A DNA stretch of 39,920 bases from an uncultured Actinomyces sp. (GTDB taxonomy: Bacteria > Actinomycetota > Actinomycetes > S36-B12): assembly GCA_964476205.1 (NCBI GenBank), contig CAYYZU010000001.1, positions 1-39,920 of the forward strand, given 5' to 3'. The translations under genes were made by a program, and so were the position numbers. This document shows, one piece after another, positions 2,147 to 8,040 of this stretch; positions within the stretch are counted from its first letter, which is position 1; each line of letters starts with the position of its first letter. The notes under the pieces are model-generated. The model saw only the letters and a list, made by a program, of their open reading frames with translations, was not told the DNA's origin and made no database searches.

Positions 2147-2299
2147 GTGATGCTCCTCATGTTCGTCGTCTGGCTCGTGGTCTTCATCGGGATCTTCCGC
2201 GGATGGCGATGGATTCCGCTTCTGGCCCTCGCCAACCTGGCCTACACGCTGCTGGTCTTGCGCATCCACATGACCGACCCGATCCCGCTCAACTTCTAG
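2147..2299 (+). CDS. Small hydrophobic membrane protein of about 50 aa (resembles DUF5993-type peptides found next to DsbB-like genes)
   Basis: Translation is (V)MLLMFVVWLVVFIGIFRGWRWIPLLALANLAYTLLVLRIHMTDPIPLNF, with two predicted TM helices. The track ORF 2111-2299 is trimmed to GTG 2147 or ATG 2150. The stop lies 8 nt before the DsbB-like start. The family name is from memory. Confidence 0.5.
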   Translation: MMLLMFVVWLVVFIGIFRGWRWIPLLALANLAYTLLVLRIHMTDPIPLNF

Positions 2300-2307
2300 G
2301 GGCAGAC

Positions 2308-3042
2308 GTGACGACTTCCCAGGTGACAGCGCCCACCTCCCGGTGGAGCATGGCTCCCGACCGCGCGGTCTTCCTCTCTCGACTGATCAACATCGCTGCG
2401 CTCCTCGGCCTTATCGGCGTGCTCGCGGGCTCTCTGCATCTGCAGTTCGGTGCGGGGGAGCAGCCATGCCCCCTGTGCATCGTGCAGCGATCGGGGATGG
2501 TGGGCCTCGCCGTCGGCCCCATCATGAACCTCTTGTGGGGCATTAAGGCTCGGCACTACGCACTGAGCATCCTCGCGGCTGTTGTGGGGGCCGCCGGATC
2601 GACGCGGCAGATCCTCTTGCACATCGCCGATCCAGCCGATCCCGGATACGGACCGGAGGTCTTCGGCTGGCACCTCTACACCTGGGCGCTGGTCACCTTC
2701 ATCGTCGCCATCGTGGGCTGCGCCCTGCTCATCATGTGGCAAGCGCCATTCGAGGCCGGAGATGAGGGAGTCCTGCGTGACCCGGGCTCGATGCGACCCA
2801 TCGTCACCGCGCTGGTGGTGTGGCTCAGCCTCGTCGTTGTCATCTGGGTCACCATCGACCTGGCCGTCATCGGGCTCTCGGTGATACCGGAGTGCGGCCT
2901 GGGTGAATGCCCGGATGACCCTGAGAACACCAACGCTCTGGGCAACCTCGGTGGCTGGTTTGCCGTGCTCGCGGTCGGACTGGTCGCGGCGGTCGTTGCC
3001 GCGATCATCGAACGCCGCTGGCGCGCCAAGGAGCGGGTCTAG
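2308..3042 (+). CDS. DsbB-family disulfide bond formation protein, atypical form with 6 predicted TM helices
   Basis: The motif PCPLCIVQRSGMVG matches the DsbB C-x-x-C-I-x-x-R signature at the TM1/TM2 loop. A second Cys pair, PECGLGECPDD, lies in the last extracytoplasmic loop. The start is GTG 2308, preceded by AGGGG. The track's longer start at 2203 overlaps the upstream small gene. Confidence 0.7.
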   Translation: MTTSQVTAPTSRWSMAPDRAVFLSRLINIAALLGLIGVLAGSLHLQFGAGEQPCPLCIVQRSGMVGLAVGPIMNLLWGIKARHYALSILAAVVGAAGSTRQILLHIADPADPGYGPEVFGWHLYTWALVTFIVAIVGCALLIMWQAPFEAGDEGVLRDPGSMRPIVTALVVWLSLVVVIWVTIDLAVIGLSVIPECGLGECPDDPENTNALGNLGGWFAVLAVGLVAAVVAAIIERRWRAKERV

Positions 3043-3088
3043 CGCCCAAGAAGTCGATCTAGGGCGCCAGCCCGCCTACGCAGTCGGA

Positions 3089-3556
3089 CTACAGGGCGCC
3101 GCGCTGGCTATCGCCATGGTCGCGCAGGGGATCGATTCCCGCGATGTGCTGACCTAGGCGAAGCAACTGCTCGTCGGTGAGGTCGTCGATGTCGGCACGG
3201 ACCTCACCGAGGATGCGCGCCGCGATATCGCGACGGTGCTTCTCGATGTAGGACGCCAGGTGGTGGCTCGCGTTTGCCTTGCCCTTGCCGTGGCCGAGCA
3301 GGATGATCCCGGCAGCGGGAGCGAGCGCCTCGGTGAGCAGCGACCAATAGGCGTCGCTGTCGTCGAGATAGTTGCCACTGACGTTGCCATCGTGGTGGTA
3401 GACGTTGTGGAAGCGCTTGCGGGGATCCTCGGCAACCACGTGCTCGGGTGCCGAGTGATCGGGGGAGTCAAGCGCATAGATGCGGGTGCTGTGGAAGTCC
3501 ACGGCCGCAACCGCGACGCGACCGCTCAGGTCGATGGCATCCGTGACGTTGTGCAT
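3089..3556 (-). CDS. Hypothetical protein of 155 aa, eRF1-domain-3 / host-attachment-like (baeRF-type; tentatively the family labelled translational machinery protein)
   Basis: The sequence is MHNVTDAIDLSGRVAVAAVDFHSTRIYALD...AGIILLGHGKGKANASHHLASYIEKHRRDIAARILGEVRADIDDLTDEQLLRL. The layout is an N-terminal beta hairpin, then a hydrophobic core strand, then a D..t..el tail, as in host-attachment/baeRF proteins as I remember them. The ATG at 3556 lies 1 nt after the upstream stop, and GAGGAGG ends 6 nt before that ATG. The track's 254-aa ORF is a shadow extension. Confidence 0.6.
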   Translation of the reverse strand: MHNVTDAIDLSGRVAVAAVDFHSTRIYALDSPDHSAPEHVVAEDPRKRFHNVYHHDGNVSGNYLDDSDAYWSLLTEALAPAAGIILLGHGKGKANASHHLASYIEKHRRDIAARILGEVRADIDDLTDEQLLRLGQHIAGIDPLRDHGDSQRGAL

Positions 3557-3557
3557 G

Positions 3558-3860
3558 TCAGACCTCCTCGCCGGGCTTCTTGGGATCGAAACCGGCGTTG
3601 CGCAGCATGCGACGCAGGTCCACCACCATCTGGGTGCCGATGTCCTTGCTCTGGGGGCGCTCGAAGATCTCAGTCTCGGGGCCCACTGTGATCTTGAACT
3701 TGCCGTCGTGACGCTCCTCGACCTCGCCGACGTGCTCGAGGAGCGAGATCGTGTCCGCCCAGCGGATGTTGTGGCTCGTCGGATGGCTGAAGATCGCCGT
3801 GAGCGTGTTGAGATGGTGGTTGTTAAGGTGAATGGGCTCGTCACCCGTGCCATGTGCCAT
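3558..3860 (-). CDS. HicA-like small protein of 100 aa (putative mRNA-interferase-fold component)
   Basis: NTLTAIFSHPTSHNIRWADTISLLEHVGEVEERHDGKFKITVGPETEIFERPQSKDIGTQMVVDLRRMLRNAGF resembles the TL..IF..P....I.W.D...LL...G ... G.....V ... LR..L..AG pattern of one HicA (YcfA-like) subfamily. This is recognition by eye only. Confidence 0.55.
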   Translation of the reverse strand: MAHGTGDEPIHLNNHHLNTLTAIFSHPTSHNIRWADTISLLEHVGEVEERHDGKFKITVGPETEIFERPQSKDIGTQMVVDLRRMLRNAGFDPKKPGEEV

Positions 3861-3905
3861 GGCCGAAGCCTGCCAGACGACTCGTCGCGTGAGGCTGAGG
3901 GGTCC

Positions 3906-3911
3906 TAGCCT
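3906..3911 (+). promoter_or_regulatory. -10-like hexamer TAGCCT, 6 nt upstream of ATG 3918 (candidate leaderless promoter)
   Basis: The sequence reads TAGCCT gtggcc ATG. No SD is present. Confidence 0.45.
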
Positions 3912-3917
3912 GTGGCC

Positions 3918-4661
3918 ATGACCGGTCGCATTCTCATCACGGGTGGCTCACGCGGTATCGGTGCTGCCACCGCCCGACGATTCGCCGCCGACGGATGGCG
4001 AGTGGCGGTGCATTTCCACTCCAGTCCTGATGCGGTCGGTGAGGTCCTTGAATCGCTCCAGGGGACCGGGCACGTCGCTGTCCGAGCAGACCTGCGGGAT
4101 TCCGCCGCCATTTCCGGAATGGTGGAAGAGGCCGTGGCAGGGCTGGGGGGTCTCGACGTCGTGGTGAACAACGCGGGTGTTTTCTTCGACCACCCCATAG
4201 ACGAGGTCGACTTCGAGACCTGGCTCGATGCCTGGCGCCAGACGCTCGACATCAACCTGCTCGCGCCCGCACTCGTCTCCTGGCACGCCGTCCGGCACAT
4301 GGGCCCGGGTGGACGCATCATCAATGTCGGATCGCGGGGTGCCTTCCGCGGTGAGCCGCACAGCCCCGCCTACGGTGCGAGCAAGGCGGGCATCGCGGCG
4401 TTCGGTCAGTCGCTGGCGAAGTACCTCGGGGCTCGAGGTATCGCCGTGACCACCGTCGCCCCCGGATTCGTCGAGACCGATATGGCCACGGAGGCAATGG
4501 CCGGTGAGGGGGGTGTCGTGCGTCGCGCGGAAAGCCCCTTCGGGCGGATCGCACATCCTGACGAGATCGCTGCGACCATCGCCTTCCTGGCATCGCCCGA
4601 GGCTGAGTGGGTGAGTGGCGGCATCATCGACCTCAATGGGGCCTCATATCTGCGCATGTGA
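3918..4661 (+). CDS. SDR family oxidoreductase (FabG-like)
   Basis: The protein carries ITGGSRGIGAATARRFA (TGxxxGIG), NNAG and YGASKAG (YxxxK). ATG 3918 is preferred over GTG 3912 because of the upstream -10 spacing. Confidence 0.85.
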   Translation: MTGRILITGGSRGIGAATARRFAADGWRVAVHFHSSPDAVGEVLESLQGTGHVAVRADLRDSAAISGMVEEAVAGLGGLDVVVNNAGVFFDHPIDEVDFETWLDAWRQTLDINLLAPALVSWHAVRHMGPGGRIINVGSRGAFRGEPHSPAYGASKAGIAAFGQSLAKYLGARGIAVTTVAPGFVETDMATEAMAGEGGVVRRAESPFGRIAHPDEIAATIAFLASPEAEWVSGGIIDLNGASYLRM

Positions 4662-4670
4662 GCCCGGCCG

Positions 4671-5501
4671 TCAGGTCCCGAGCAGGAAATCCCGCAAGAG
4701 TCGATTGAACTCCGCAGCATGCTCGATCTGCGTCCAGTGCCCGCAGTTGCCGAACACGTGCAATTGCGCGTCGGCAATGAGTTCGAAGAGCCGGAGCGAG
4801 GTGGCAAGGGGGATGACCCGGTCCTCGCGCCCGTGGAAGATCAGCGTGGGGGCCCCGATGGACGACACAAGCGACTCGTCGTGCGACAACGCCGTCACCC
4901 AGCGCTGGCGCGGTGCCGGGAACATCTGTGCGTACGCCTCGTGGACACCCGGCCTGATGCTCGCCTCGAAGCGCAGCCGCGCTAGGTCTTCAAGGCCGGG
5001 GGCGGGTGTAGCGGTGAAGACGCGCAGGAGTTCGGCCATGGCTTCAACGCTCGGCTCGTAGCCCCACACCGCATCGAGGCCCGGCGTGATCGGGAAGTCG
5101 AGGCCGACCGCACCCATGAGGCCGAGACGGCGGACGCGCTCGGGATGCCGGATGGCGAGCGACAGTGCGAGCGAGCCGCCGAACGAGTTGCCGACGACAT
5201 GCGCCTGGTCGATGCCGAGCGCATCGAGCACGCCCGTCACGTGAAGGGTCCAGGTGTCGAGGTCATAGGCATCGATCGGGCGCTCGGTGTAGCCGAAGCC
5301 CACGATGTCGGGAGCGACGACGCGGAAGTGCGGCGTGAGCGCGGGGATCGTGAGGCGCCAGTTCGCCCACGCACTCACGCCGGGCCCCGAGCCGTGGATG
5401 AGCAGCACGGTCCCGCCCCCGGGATCGAAGCCCGTGTCGTGCACGTTGGTGCGGATACCGGCCGCGAGGACCGTCGCGCCGATCTCGGGATTCGTGGTCA
5501 C
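4671..5501 (-). CDS. Alpha/beta hydrolase (meta-cleavage-product hydrolase-like)
   Basis: The protein has the HGSGPG oxyanion region, the GNSFGG nucleophile elbow, and HGREDRVIP...CGHWTQIEH. GTG 5501 overlaps the upstream stop as GTGA, and GGAGG lies 8 nt upstream. Confidence 0.85.
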   Translation of the reverse strand: MTTNPEIGATVLAAGIRTNVHDTGFDPGGGTVLLIHGSGPGVSAWANWRLTIPALTPHFRVVAPDIVGFGYTERPIDAYDLDTWTLHVTGVLDALGIDQAHVVGNSFGGSLALSLAIRHPERVRRLGLMGAVGLDFPITPGLDAVWGYEPSVEAMAELLRVFTATPAPGLEDLARLRFEASIRPGVHEAYAQMFPAPRQRWVTALSHDESLVSSIGAPTLIFHGREDRVIPLATSLRLFELIADAQLHVFGNCGHWTQIEHAAEFNRLLRDFLLGT

Positions 5502-6310
5502 GGTGCATCCTCCTGGCCTCGGGTTCCTGCGAGGGTCGACTTCGAGAGCTTGGCCCCCGTTGTGTCCGTGATGAGCTCATGGTGCACGTAGACGGCCTCG
5601 ACGACGTTGGCAGCTTCCATCCACTGCGCGAGGTGGATCTGGGCCGCGCTCGAGGCGAGCAGGTCCCTGCCTCGCACGACATGCGTGACACCTAGGTCGC
5701 GATCTTCTACGACCGACACGAGTTGGTAGGCGGGGAGATCGTCGCGCCTCCAGATGACGAAGTCGCCCATTTCCTCCTCCAGGGGGATCATCTCGCCTCC
5801 CACGGTCACCTGCATGCCACCGTCGATCGCGGCTCGCAGGGCGGTGCGCCCTGGCTCGAGCGGGAGGGACCTGCCGCGGCATCCACCGGCGCAGCCTCCG
5901 CGTGCAGGGCCCGACTGTCGCGACCGGGAGCAGGCGCATGCGTAGACGGGCAGGCCACATCTGATCGCCTCGCGGAGTTGCTGCCGGTAGTACTCCGTCT
6001 TGGCGCGCTGGGACCAGTTCCGCTCGAAGTCGTCCACGTCGACCGGACCTACCGTCCACGCGATGCCCATGTCACGCAGGGTCGCGAAGATGTCCTCGGC
6101 GTACTCCCGTCGGTAGCGAGCCGCGTCGGCGTCATCGATACGCAGGGCAAGTGACGCCCCTAGCGCGCGCGCCAGGTCCGCGGTGCGGCGGAAGTTCAGA
6201 CGATTGCCCTCGTGCAGGAATCCGCTCGGCGTGGGTGCGAGGCGCGCGAGTGGTGTGAGCCCGGCGGGAGGCATGGGCCCATCATGCCGCGCCGCCGGGC
6301 GTCGGATCAT
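5498..6310 (-). CDS. Glutamyl-Q tRNA(Asp) synthetase-like class I aaRS catalytic-domain protein
   Basis: The motifs are LAPTPSGFLHEGN (P-S-G-x-L-H-x-G), YACACSRSR...C..C (a Zn cluster as in GluQRS), DFVIWRRDDLPAYQLVSVVEDRDLGVTHVVRGRDL and GAKLSKST. The start is either ATG 6310 (ATGA overlap with the permease stop) or ATG 6274. The track's 495-aa ORF is a shadow extension into the permease gene. Confidence 0.7.
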   Translation of the reverse strand: MIRRPAARHDGPMPPAGLTPLARLAPTPSGFLHEGNRLNFRRTADLARALGASLALRIDDADAARYRREYAEDIFATLRDMGIAWTVGPVDVDDFERNWSQRAKTEYYRQQLREAIRCGLPVYACACSRSRQSGPARGGCAGGCRGRSLPLEPGRTALRAAIDGGMQVTVGGEMIPLEEEMGDFVIWRRDDLPAYQLVSVVEDRDLGVTHVVRGRDLLASSAAQIHLAQWMEAANVVEAVYVHHELITDTTGAKLSKSTLAGTRGQEDAP

Positions 6311-7806
6311 CCGCCGCCGAAGAGGTTCCGGATCGGATCGATGGCGAAGTAGACGAGGAAGGCGCCGGACACGATCCACATGAGCCAGTTGACCTCGCGC
6401 GCCTTGCCGGTGGCGATCTTGATGATGCAGTAGCTCACGAATCCCGCTCCGATGCCGTTGACCAGGGAGTAGGTGAAGGGCATGAGCACGATCGTGAGGA
6501 AGCAGGGGATGCCGATGGTCAGGTCCGTGAAGTCGATATGCCGGATCTGGCTCATCATGAGGAAGCCGACGACCACGAGGGCGGGTGCGGCGGCCTCGTA
6601 GGGGATGACGGTCACGATGGGGGAGATGAGCATGGCCACGAGGAAGAGCGCCCCCGTGACGAGCGAGGCGATACCTGTGCGGGCCCCATCCCCGATGCCG
6701 GCGGCCGACTCGATGTAGGCCGTATTGCTCGATGCGGACGCCGCTCCGCCCGCCACGGCGGACAGCGAGTCCACCACCAGGATGCTCTGGAAGTGCGGGA
6801 TCTCGCCCTTGTCGTCGAGCAGGTCTGCCTCTGTTGCCAGGCCGAAGGCCGTGCCCATGGTGTCGAAGAAGTCGCTGAGGAGGAGCGCGAAGATCGCGAG
6901 CAGTGCGGCGACGACGCCGATCGCCTGGAACGAACCGAAGAGGTTGAACTGTCCGAGGAGCCCCAGGTCGGGCGTAGAGATCCACGTGCTGGGTACGGCG
7001 GGCACGTTGAGTCCCCAGCCGGTGGGGTTGGTCACGGCGCCGTCGGGGCCAGTCTTGGGCCCGACCTTGAAGACGGTCTCGATGATGATGGCGATGACCG
7101 TGGTCGCGAGAATGCCGATGAGGATTGCTCCGCGCACCTTGCGCACCATGAGGATGATGGTGATGACAAGGCCGAGCACGAAGGTAAGGATCGGCCAGCC
7201 CCTGAGTTCACCGAAGACACCGAAGGAGAGCAGGGGTACGCCTGGTCGGACGATTCCGGCATCGACCAGGCCGATGAGCGTGATGAAGAGCCCGATACCG
7301 ACGCCGATGGCGTACTTGAGCTGCTCGGGCACCGCTTTGAACACGGCGGCACGGAAACCTGTCAGGACCAGCAGCAGGATGAGGATGCCCTCGAGGACGA
7401 CGATGCCCATCGCGTCGGCCCAGGTCATCTGGGGCGCCAGCGTGAAGGCTACGACGGGGATGAGTCCTAGGCCGGCTGCGATCGCGATCGGGAAGCGCCC
7501 GATGGCACCCATGAGGATCGTCATGACTCCCGCGACGAGCGCGACGGATGCCGACACCATGGTGATCGCCTTGACGACGTCAGCCGTCCCGCCCACGTAC
7601 AGGCCGTTGACGTCTTTGGCGGTGCCGATGATGAGGGGCGCGAGCACCACGATGTAGGCCATCGTGAAGAACGTGACGAAGCCGCCACGAATCTCACGGC
7701 CGTAGGTGGAGCCCCGGGCCGTGAGGGAGAACCAGCGGTCGAACGACGACACGGCTCGCTGGGTGGACTGATCGGGGGGAGCAGACAAGGAAACCTCCGA
7801 GGTCAT
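6307..7806 (-). CDS. NCS2 (AzgA-type) nucleobase permease, probably adenine/guanine/hypoxanthine
   Basis: The sequence FDRWFSLTARGSTYGREIRGGFVTFFTMAYIVVLAP and the multi-TM body are typical of the family. The start is trimmed to ATG 7806, because the longer ORF start at 7947 abuts the tRNA. Confidence 0.8.
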   Translation of the reverse strand: MTSEVSLSAPPDQSTQRAVSSFDRWFSLTARGSTYGREIRGGFVTFFTMAYIVVLAPLIIGTAKDVNGLYVGGTADVVKAITMVSASVALVAGVMTILMGAIGRFPIAIAAGLGLIPVVAFTLAPQMTWADAMGIVVLEGILILLLVLTGFRAAVFKAVPEQLKYAIGVGIGLFITLIGLVDAGIVRPGVPLLSFGVFGELRGWPILTFVLGLVITIILMVRKVRGAILIGILATTVIAIIIETVFKVGPKTGPDGAVTNPTGWGLNVPAVPSTWISTPDLGLLGQFNLFGSFQAIGVVAALLAIFALLLSDFFDTMGTAFGLATEADLLDDKGEIPHFQSILVVDSLSAVAGGAASASSNTAYIESAAGIGDGARTGIASLVTGALFLVAMLISPIVTVIPYEAAAPALVVVGFLMMSQIRHIDFTDLTIGIPCFLTIVLMPFTYSLVNGIGAGFVSYCIIKIATGKAREVNWLMWIVSGAFLVYFAIDPIRNLFGGG

Positions 7807-7873
7807 GGCGACGGAGGCCTGCCGGTCAAGGGAAGGCGCCGCGGGAGCGACGCTGCACGACGAGCCGGGACGG

Positions 7874-7879
7874 AGGCTA
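7874..7879 (-). promoter_or_regulatory. -10-like hexamer TAGCCT upstream of the permease operon (leader of about 60 nt)
   Basis: The reverse complement of aggcta is TAGCCT. It is the only TAnnnT in the 149-nt gap between the tRNA and ATG 7806. Confidence 0.3.
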
Positions 7880-7955
7880 GCGGGTGAAGGTCCAGGGGCT
7901 GGCGAAAACGCCACAATCAACGTCAGACGGAACCCAGCCGTCGTCACTGTCTCTG

Positions 7956-8040
7956 TGTCCGAGGGGGGACTTGAACCCCCATGCCCTTTTGGGGCACTAG
8001 CACCTCAAGCTAGCGCGTCTGCCAATTCCGCCACCCGGAC
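7956..8040 (-). tRNA. tRNA-Leu (anticodon GAG), class II with a long variable arm; CCA not encoded
   Basis: The reverse complement is GTCCGGGTGGCGGAATTGGCAGACGCGCTAGCTTGAGGTGCTAGTGCCCCAAAAGGGCATGGGGGTTCAAGTCCCCCCTCGGACA. It has a 7-bp acceptor stem, an anticodon stem CTAGC/GCTAG with loop TTGAGGT, a T-loop GGTTCAAGTCC and discriminator A. Confidence 0.9.

Follow-up and report, generated by a model that had tools for sequence, protein, structure and literature searches.

The stretch of DNA analysed here (the window) comprises 39,920 nucleotides from an uncultured Actinomyces sp. (Actinomycetota; contig CAYYZU010000001.1, positions 1 to 39,920), and the subject of this work is a pair of small adjacent genes on its minus strand. 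Gene 1 (3558..3860) encodes an acidic, histidine-rich protein of 100 amino acids (aa), p1, which is placed below in an N-terminally extended subfamily of HicA. Gene 2 (3089..3556) encodes p2, a protein of 155 aa that is predicted to be a stand-alone RNase-H-like domain of the type found at the centre of eRF1 and Pelota, and that is probably a remote relative of Host_attach and the baeRF-1 proteins. The two genes are joined by the sequence TGA-c-ATG (3554..3560, minus strand), in which a single spacer base (3557) separates the stop codon of gene 1 (3558-3560) from the start codon of gene 2 (3554-3556), and a Shine-Dalgarno-like GAGGAGG (3563..3569, minus strand), as read from the sequence, lies in the last codons of gene 1, 6 nt before the ATG of gene 2. 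The junction is a translational coupling site, and TGAnATG or TGAnGTG is also found in 24 of 55 tandem loci of homologues, most of the others having spacers of 2-5 nt. An earlier interpretation made from the letters alone (the sequence-only reading) had described both reading frames, the junction and the embedded GAGGAGG exactly as they stand, had inferred translational coupling from them, and had quoted seven peptide strings, all of which are present in the translations (7/7). The results given below indicate that p1 and p2 form one conserved unit, which may be associated with translation.

Both are real genes, each with hundreds of conserved homologues. A word-indexed search returned 225 cluster representatives for p2 and 374 for p1 (E ≤ 1e-3), and with the p2 profile an exhaustive search yielded 656 clusters (50% identity) at E ≤ 1e-3, of which 256 remained at E ≤ 1e-10. 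In both alignments, whose members go down to about 50% identity, the columns have a mean identity of 62-63%. The genes are carried by uncultured Nanopelagicales and other Actinomycetota, Acidimicrobiia, Solirubrobacteraceae, Dormibacterota, Acidobacteriota and one Planctomycetaceae metagenome-assembled genome (MAG). Scans of the two window proteins against Pfam and NCBIfam gave only noise (ApbE, E 0.027; a sigma factor, E 0.0014), as did a comparison of the PDB sequences with hidden Markov models (HMMs) of the two families (matches such as a de novo TIM barrel and catalases), and no Pfam model covers gene 2. Weak Pfam matches of p2 to DUF1749, DUF498 and Smr recur, but were judged spurious, since apparently only the region of the LLGHG.G motif is matched.

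The names given to the homologues of p1 and p2 are all either "hypothetical" or mistaken. For example, a p1 homologue with 87% identity (P0125) is labelled "type II toxin-antitoxin system HicA family toxin" by NCBI, and others are called "thiamine biosynthesis lipoprotein ApbE" (JGI) or "hexulose-6-phosphate isomerase" (one NCBI record). The ApbE label echoes the sub-threshold Pfam matches to ApbE (E 0.024-0.027) and is probably spurious; the isomerase label has no support in the scans made.

The HicA-family domain of p1

HicA proteins have a dsRBD-type fold. The AlphaFold2 model of p1 (pLDDT 80) shows the topology H-H-E-E-E-H, an extra N-terminal helix being followed by H34-44, E46-49, E54-59, E62-67 and H76-88. 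Its best fold match in the PDB (Foldseek) is the HicA protein of B. pseudomallei (6g26_E), with a template modelling score (TM) of 0.62 on target and a root-mean-square deviation of 2.9 Å over 62 columns. This match spans the whole 61-residue target; its E value is only 0.2 because the domain is so small.

Decisive for the family assignment were not the short HicA proteins of the PDB, however, but HicA proteins of a longer type, which were found when a fused relative of the pair (see below) was compared by tblastn with the plasmids of PLSDB, where p1-like genes are annotated as HicA. With the HicA of Shewanella the p1 family aligns over 80 columns (hhalign, Prob 98%, E 1.5e-13), and with that of Cereibacter the window p1 shares 33% identity over 84 aa (BLASTP, E 1e-11). 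The proteins from Shewanella xiamenensis and Cereibacter both exceed the Pfam threshold for HicA (32.9 and 42.4 bits, respectively, vs 27), and the Shewanella hicA gene overlaps a true HicB gene (PF05534, 70.9 bits). With four short PDB HicAs, hhalign gave Prob 4-31% for p1; the narrow p1 alignment mis-aligned a single helix with them (Prob 4%), and a broader alignment was needed. Within the p1 family itself, 10 of 43 members have sub-threshold matches to PF07927, which in the two members inspected follow one register (HMM positions 1-49, from the conserved Trp onward).

These sequence comparisons place p1 in the N-terminally extended subfamily of HicA, characterised by the motif (N)-x-x-H-x-x-T-L-x-x-I-F-x-x-P-x-S-x-x-I-x-W, in agreement with the HicA assignment of the sequence-only reading. 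The HicA-homologous alpha-beta-beta-beta-alpha core corresponds to residues 32-91 (3588..3767, minus strand), which hhalign places on HicA 1-59. The residues before the core contain the extra helix and the motif LNNHH..T...IF.HP, both common to long HicA toxins, and the start Met is nearly invariant among the homologues.

This does not mean that p1 has the properties of a HicA toxin. The closest comparison is with the HicA of S. xiamenensis (WP_115407250.1, encoded on plasmid pNUITM-VS1_1 together with HicB WP_219640050.1), which is of the same length class as p1 and has in common with it the N-terminal helix and motif, the alpha-beta-beta-beta-alpha core and a C-terminal L..L...G helix, the identity of p1 to N-terminally extended HicA toxins being 32-33%. 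These toxins have pI values of 9.7-10, whereas the p1 family is acidic (pI ~5.7). Indeed, the pI is 5.1-6.6 in all 43 members (5.85 for the window p1) with a median net charge of −4.9, as compared with a pI of 9.7-11.6 and a net charge of +4 to +7 in HicA toxins (four from the PDB and two from plasmids). Where long HicAs have GS[HR], p1 has HDGK, and where they have HRPHPxKE, it has ERPxxKD, the HRPHP itself reading ERPQS in p1. The catalytic His of the short HicAs (H24, in GSH) aligns to K54 of p1; a histidine nearby, H51, is invariant in the close subfamily only and is lost in the fused relatives. From these comparisons p1 is apparently a HicA-family domain stripped of the basic surface and of the RNase histidines of HicA. 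There is also no cognate HicB beside it, p2 having neither a HicB/HicB_lk match nor a DNA-binding domain: whereas the partner of WP_115407250.1 is HicB, that of p1 is a baeRF-1-like domain, and whereas WP_115407250.1 is encoded on a conjugative plasmid beside an integrase, the p1 locus is chromosomal and syntenic.

The eRF1-like fold of p2

In eRF1, Pelota and Balon the core domain characteristic of the eRF1 superfamily occupies the ribosomal A site. The AlphaFold2 model of p2 (pLDDT 79) has the order bbb-a-b-a-b-a with a low-confidence loop at residues 42-67, and Foldseek returns Pelota, eRF1, aRF1 or Balon for 24 of the 25 best PDB matches (E 1.6e-4 to 1.2e-2, most with a probability of 0.97-1.00, TM on query ~0.4-0.54). 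Human eRF1 is represented at rank twelve by its isolated middle domain (2hst, TM 0.56 on target), and lower-ranked matches include RuvX, RuvC, ParM and Ppx. As far as the model goes, the likeness is to the central (M, RNase-H-like) domain of eRF1 and Pelota. The sequence-only reading had likened gene 2 to eRF1 and Host_attach, which stands, but had expected domain 3 or the C-terminal part of Pelota, which does not. It had also stated that gene 2 is no HicB, and this was confirmed in every comparison made: none of 42 close or 150 representative members has a Pfam match to HicB, hhalign with the HicB of E. coli gives Prob 1%, and there is no HicB among the top 50 fold matches, though 6g26 is in the library.

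The relationship with the baeRF clan is remote in sequence. The Pfam gathering thresholds for baeRF and Host_attach families were reached by 0 of 42 close and 150 representative p2 members; below threshold, baeRF family 12 was matched in nine members, family 10 in five, Host_attach in four and family 2 in two, with best E values of 1.2e-4 to 4e-3. When the broad p2 alignment (A5) was compared by hhalign with an alignment of Host_attach (A4), the two aligned end to end over 119 columns (Prob 92%, E 6.6e-7), in register with the predicted secondary structure. It should be noted that A4 consists of 30 natural Host_attach proteins that were fetched with a consensus sequence of the family, which Pfam recognises (1.2e-60), and that only natural sequences entered the comparison. 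The score of 44.4 has to be seen against at most 16.4 for 30 column-shuffled Host_attach alignments, 12.2 for the reversed alignment and 8.7-13.6 for unrelated alignments. Three families of the baeRF-1 clade have been described as reduced to the RNase-H core (Burroughs and Aravind, PMC6514570). Judging from sequence profiles and model together, p2 probably falls in or next to the baeRF-1 clade as a remotely related family, which is captured by no current Pfam model.

Host_attach (baeRF-1) and p2 are both single domains of ~145-155 aa with the order bbb-a-b-a-b-a, strand 3 is followed in both by a conserved loop with D.P...H and strand 5 by a D-L-T motif, and in neither is there the glutamine of GGQ. 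They differ in the motif after strand 4, which is GHGxGK(A/S)N in p2 and APPxFLGxLR in Host_attach, and also in context: the one Host_attach locus inspected stands alone, whereas p2 has a HicA-family domain as neighbour or fusion partner. With the M domain of eRF1, aRF1 and Pelota and with Balon (Rv2629/Msmeg1130), p2 shares a strand-4 motif of the G-x-G..K type followed by a helix. It differs from them in that the N-terminal domain (codon-recognition or Sm) and the Pelota domain of the C-terminus are both absent; p2 also has neither GGQ nor a basic helix after the loop, and its sequence similarity to these proteins is undetectable by HMM search of the PDB.

The conserved loop of p2 extends from strand 3 to helix 1 (residues 44-66; 3359..3427, minus strand), has the pattern DP....(x8)H..GN..G.Y..D and a low pLDDT, and is placed in the model between E38-41 and H68-78. 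In the close family it is of fixed length, with invariant D44, P45, H54, G57, N58, G61, Y63 and D66, and the alignment of this family shows no conserved Gln in it. From the known topology of the eRF1 M domain the loop would be the positional equivalent of the GGQ loop of eRF1. That there is no such Gln is in keeping with published work in which most baeRF-1 families are described as non-catalytic (PMC6514570). In the following helix (68-78, AYWSLLTEALA) Y70, W71 and L78 are conserved, as is A81 just beyond it, and none of these residues is basic. Among the elements of p2, the strand-4 motif GHGxGK(A/S)N alone is nearly invariant throughout the wide family; in the window it reads GHGKGKANA (residues 88-96, at the end of strand 4; 3269..3295, minus strand): G90, G92, K93 and A96 are invariant in the close alignment (A1), and only A81, G90 and G92 are nearly so in the broad one (A5).

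Pairing, fusion and possible function

Among 85 loci collected from the p2 side, p1 is followed by p2 in 55, the two genes are convergent in four and p2 precedes p1 in two; in one locus the partner is 3.5 kb away, in 21 p2 is alone within 6 kb, and two loci lie at a contig edge. In two MAG loci (L038 and L045) there is no stop codon between the two frames, which are thus fused in frame. Such fusions are common: the 150 best representative clusters include 59 with a length of 190 aa or more, and 47 of these have a p1 domain followed by a p2 domain in one chain. The reverse domain order occurs in P0064. Another fusion (P0080) is identical in three independent metagenomes. Fused relatives are found in Acidobacteriota and on a cyanobacterial plasmid, namely the finished plasmid pC052_A of the cultured Nostoc sp. 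C052 (L095, ~2477-3175). There the annotated hypothetical coding sequence (2573-3175, 200 aa) starts too late; the frame upstream of the annotated start encodes a complete p1-type domain, and the real product is therefore a fused p1+p2 protein.

The two genes are not always neighbours. Of 80 metagenome loci collected from the p1 side, 32 are tandem or fused and 20 are uninformative; in the remaining 28, which extend 500 nt or more to either side, p1 is solitary, with neither a match to p2, Host_attach or baeRF family 2 nor a conserved neighbour. Three further solitary p1 genes lie on contigs of 126 kb to 1.4 Mb. Since unpaired loci are this frequent, p1 and p2 can be encoded apart and may also act alone. 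The obligate co-expression that had been deduced from the junction holds, then, for the present lineage and not for the family as a whole. As a pair the genes are nevertheless widely conserved, being adjacent across Actinomycetota, Dormibacterota and the Planctomycetaceae MAG and fused beyond these groups.

Other contexts occur as well. One Solirubrobacteraceae MAG (MFD04463.bin.1.204) has two p2 paralogues (L078 and L080), neither with p1 within 6 kb, from which it appears that the p2 family is expanded and uncoupled in large soil genomes. On plasmid 1 of Frondihabitans sp. PAMC 28766 (L093) a baeRF family 2 gene (1776-2468), bona fide with 70.2 bits vs a threshold of 26.9, is directly followed by a p1-like gene (2483-2752) that is 46% identical. 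This adjacency hints that the link between HicA and baeRF is broader than one family. It is known from one locus, because a plasmid search for further cases returned Frondihabitans itself only and with that single sequence none was detected in the 80 metagenome loci. In the same locus an annotated 97-aa open reading frame (ORF; 1568-1858) overlaps the start of the family 2 gene in another frame and resembles its missing N-terminal strands, which suggests a frameshift, a pseudogene or an annotation split. Yet another context for this HicA-like clade is seen on the Polymorphobacter plasmid p29334-1 (L094, 2447-3144), where a p1-like gene (122 aa) has a 4-nt overlap with an ORF of 111 aa whose product begins like a signal peptide and has no relation to p2.

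The setting of the pair in the window is that of ordinary chromosomal genes. About 20 related genomes (p2 identity 79-96%) have the same gene order of SDR (short-chain dehydrogenase/reductase), p1, p2, membrane protein and oxidoreductase, the nearest relatives of the module (92-96% identity) being freshwater Nanopelagicales/Actinomycetota MAGs. This does not fit the earlier view that the module sits apart from its neighbours, and the lower GC content ascribed to it was not found either: the module has a value of 0.64 and the 9 kb around it have 0.63-0.72, and since it lies within the range of the flanks there is no compositional island. PADLOC and the phage search gave no match for the module, and tblastn against PLSDB only seven plasmid matches. 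The best reading of these data is that the gene pair is chromosomal and vertically inherited and is not an addiction or defence cassette.

No account of such a pair was found in a full-text search of the literature on baeRF, Host_attach and HicB, as the sequence-only reading had surmised. Of the 14 HicA classes distinguished by Gerdes (2023; 10.1101/2023.12.08.570793) none mentions a release-factor-like partner, and Burroughs and Aravind (2019; PMC6514570) do not mention HicA. The known systems nearest to the pair are Class 1 hicAB and the fused HicAB/HicBA proteins of Classes 11-13, in which, as here, a HicA-family domain is combined with an RNase-H-fold partner lacking a DNA-binding domain, the genes being closely linked or overlapping and fused monocistronic versions existing in both cases. 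They differ in that Class 1 HicB has 57-94 aa and a partial bbb-a-b fold, whereas p2 has 155 aa and a complete five-stranded fold related to eRF1 and Host_attach; further differences from the hicAB classes are the degenerate, acidic HicA domain of p1, the frequency of orphans and the position of the locus outside a defence island. The components are thus of known kinds, and their combination, the degenerate HicA domain and the p2 family appear to be undescribed.

Because the two domains are fused in both orders, because their genes occur in three orders with minimal spacers and because this is conserved across phyla, p1 and p2 are best regarded as one physical unit. We propose that they are the two halves of one conserved protein unit, which in the present lineage would be made in fixed proportion through the coupling at TGAcATG with its internal Shine-Dalgarno sequence and would presumably assemble as a heterodimer, and which elsewhere would consist of the same two domains in one polypeptide. 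If the analogy to Pelota, eRF1 and Balon holds, the docking site of p2 would be the ribosomal A site or its vicinity, the strictly conserved D-P...H..GN..G.Y..D loop of p2 would lie where eRF1 has GGQ, and the degenerate HicA domain of p1 would be the partner or adaptor that stands in for the missing flanking domains. Since there is no conserved Gln, p2 is more likely a non-hydrolytic blocker, a sensor or a rescue co-factor than a peptidyl-tRNA hydrolase. Taken together, p1-p2 could be a small translation-associated factor (of hibernation, stalling or rescue) with p2 facing the ribosome and p1 as adaptor, a proposal to which we tentatively give a little less than an even chance of being right. 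It is put forward because both halves, judged by their homology, suggest an involvement with RNA and translation, p1 having a dsRBD-type HicA fold and p2 the A-site core of the eRF1 superfamily. There are, however, several points that weigh against it. No ribosome-related neighbour supports a role in translation: when the ORFs within 4.5 kb of the 85 loci were clustered, no neighbour but p1 was conserved across lineages, HPF, which accompanies several baeRF-1 families (PMC6514570), not having been searched by name. Partners are not nearby in about one quarter of the p2 loci and about one half of the informative p1 loci, neither window protein reaches any Pfam threshold, and the narrow p2 alignment, although it gives the same register with Host_attach, does so without significance. 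The helix after the p2 loop (AYWSLLTEALA) is without the conserved arginines that were taken as a sign of contact with large-subunit rRNA (Burroughs and Aravind, PMC6514570). Finally, p1 and p2 are both acidic, which is unfavourable to direct RNA binding. It should be remembered here that tRNA mimics of the eRF1 type are acidic too.

What else the pair could be depends largely on which features of p1 and p2 are thought to be retained from their relatives. If p1 were still an mRNA interferase and p2 an antitoxin that binds it directly in the manner of HicB, the module would be a diverged HicAB-type toxin-antitoxin or anti-phage system and the fusions cis-autoinhibited toxins comparable to the fused HicAB classes. 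Two small adjacent co-transcribed genes, as in type II modules, would fit this, as would the order of hicA and then partner with overlapping or coupled genes, which is that of Class 1 hicAB. Also, p1 is a genuine HicA-family member whose closest annotated relatives are found in plasmid hicA-hicB operons, its H51 is invariant in the close subfamily, an 87%-identical homologue carries the NCBI label "HicA family toxin", and a partial RNase-H fold is present in HicB, too. Fused proteins of HicA and an RNase-H domain have been described (Classes 11-13; 10.1101/2023.12.08.570793), and fusion alone would not exclude a toxin, because, according to a proposal of Gerdes (2023), the fused HicAB classes act as functional toxins. 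We nevertheless consider a toxin improbable. The position of the catalytic His of HicA and the histidines of HRPHP are not kept in p1, the charge of the uniformly acidic p1 family (net about −5) is opposite to that of HicA toxins (+4 to +7), and p2 shows no similarity to HicB, whether in Pfam searches of 42 and 150 members, in hhalign or among the top 50 fold matches. Orphans are frequent on both sides (28 p1 loci without a conserved neighbour, three on long contigs and 21 p2 loci), fusions are common, synteny is conserved in about 20 relatives at normal GC, there are no phage or PADLOC matches and only seven plasmid matches, and the conservation is unusually high for a toxin-antitoxin pair. 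The toxin/immunity function suggested in the sequence-only reading is for these reasons given up here.

If instead the eRF1 likeness of p2 reflected fold ancestry only, the pair could be a His/Asp-rich metal binder or a metal-dependent enzyme, such as an RNase-H-fold hydrolase or a metallochaperone, in which a metal ion would be held by conserved Asp and His residues of p2 and of the N-terminus of p1 and which would have no part in the ribosome. Both proteins are acidic and have ~8% His; D20(H21), D44, H54, H107 and D122 are conserved in the close and the fused p2 families, strands 1 and 5 having D20 and D122 at their C-terminal ends, the place of the catalytic carboxylates in RNase-H-fold enzymes; RuvX, RuvC and ASKHA phosphatases/ATPases are among the lower fold matches; and the clustering around the 85 loci revealed no ribosome-related neighbourhood. 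The Asp and His residues are not conserved, however, in the wider family of stand-alone p2 proteins, where near-invariance is confined to A81, G90 and G92. Fold and profile comparisons match best to A-site factors that are not enzymes and to Host_attach, and no enzyme family rises above noise, the recurrent DUF1749 matches apparently reflecting only the LLGHG motif. We take this explanation as a serious rival, though on balance an unlikely one. That p1 and p2 have no joint function, being two unrelated small conserved genes that are neighbours by chance in this lineage, would agree with the many loci in which each gene is found without the other, but not with an adjacency that extends across Actinomycetota, Dormibacterota and a Planctomycetaceae MAG in three gene orders with conserved spacers of 1-5 nt, nor with repeated fusions in both domain orders that include Acidobacteriota and a cyanobacterial plasmid. 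That the fusions are assembly artefacts is spoken against by the finished Nostoc plasmid and the three independent metagenomes. The fusion data effectively refute chance neighbourhood.

To come back to the translation-associated factor, a bolder version of it would be that the pair and its single-chain relatives (in at least five phyla) constitute an unrecognised ribosome-associated factor in which a release-factor core domain, standing alone, cooperates with a domesticated, catalytically dead HicA domain. We regard this as unlikely on present evidence. If it were true, the recurring partnership of a HicA fold with an RNase-H fold would mean that the partial RNase-H domain of HicB and the baeRF-1 core share ancestry, and an ancient heterodimer linked to translation would have given rise both to HicAB systems and to the p1-p2 factor.

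Stand-alone baeRF-1 proteins (Host_attach and its relatives) are widespread, and we know of no function for them. Three-domain bacterial homologues of eRF1 such as Balon have recently been demonstrated, reportedly, to be ribosome hibernation factors. The p1-p2 pair gives the single-domain versions a defined, co-evolving partner and thereby an experimental handle on complex formation and ribosome binding. The apparent domestication of a HicA-family domain to a non-toxic subunit also calls for caution with the annotation "HicA family toxin". In abundant freshwater and soil Actinomycetota (Nanopelagicales, Acidimicrobiia), for which slow growth and dormancy are ecologically central, p1-p2 is a stable core gene pair. 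Because there are cultured carriers, Nostoc sp. C052 with a fusion and Frondihabitans with a p1-like gene beside baeRF family 2, genetic work is feasible.

Neighbouring genes in the window

The gene pair lies between the SDR gene (3912-4661), which is upstream of gene 1 and divergent from the module, and a gene on the plus strand (2203-3042) for a multi-pass membrane protein of 279 aa, which is downstream of gene 2 and convergent with it. The 46-nt gap between the convergent gene ends holds a 16-nt inverted repeat (3036..3073; arms 3036-3051 and 3058-3073) with 81% complementarity, and the same sequence is part of an imperfect 20-nt tandem repeat of 2.4 copies (3021-3073). A scan of 2900-4100 for promoter and terminator consensus sequences found no match, including no canonical T-tract terminator. 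To judge from its position, the repeat at 3036-3073 may be a hairpin terminator without T tract that is shared by gene 2 and the membrane-protein gene.

The 279-aa membrane protein, which is syntenic with the gene pair in about 18 related genomes, contains a CPLC motif (EQPCPLCIVQR), and on this motif it may be a candidate for a DsbB/BdbC-like thiol oxidoreductase. ARAGORN and Rfam detect a single RNA gene in the window, that of a tRNA-Leu (anticodon GAG; 7955-8040, minus strand), which sits just upstream of a permease-like 546-aa ORF (6307-7947). The 495-aa ORF at 5498-6985 (minus strand) is probably over-extended, since its relatives begin near "PLTRIAPTPSGFLHEGN..." (~258 aa; e.g., L023, 128-904). 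This start resembles the HIGH-motif region of class I aminoacyl-tRNA synthetases, and the ORF may be that of a paralogue with the catalytic domain only.

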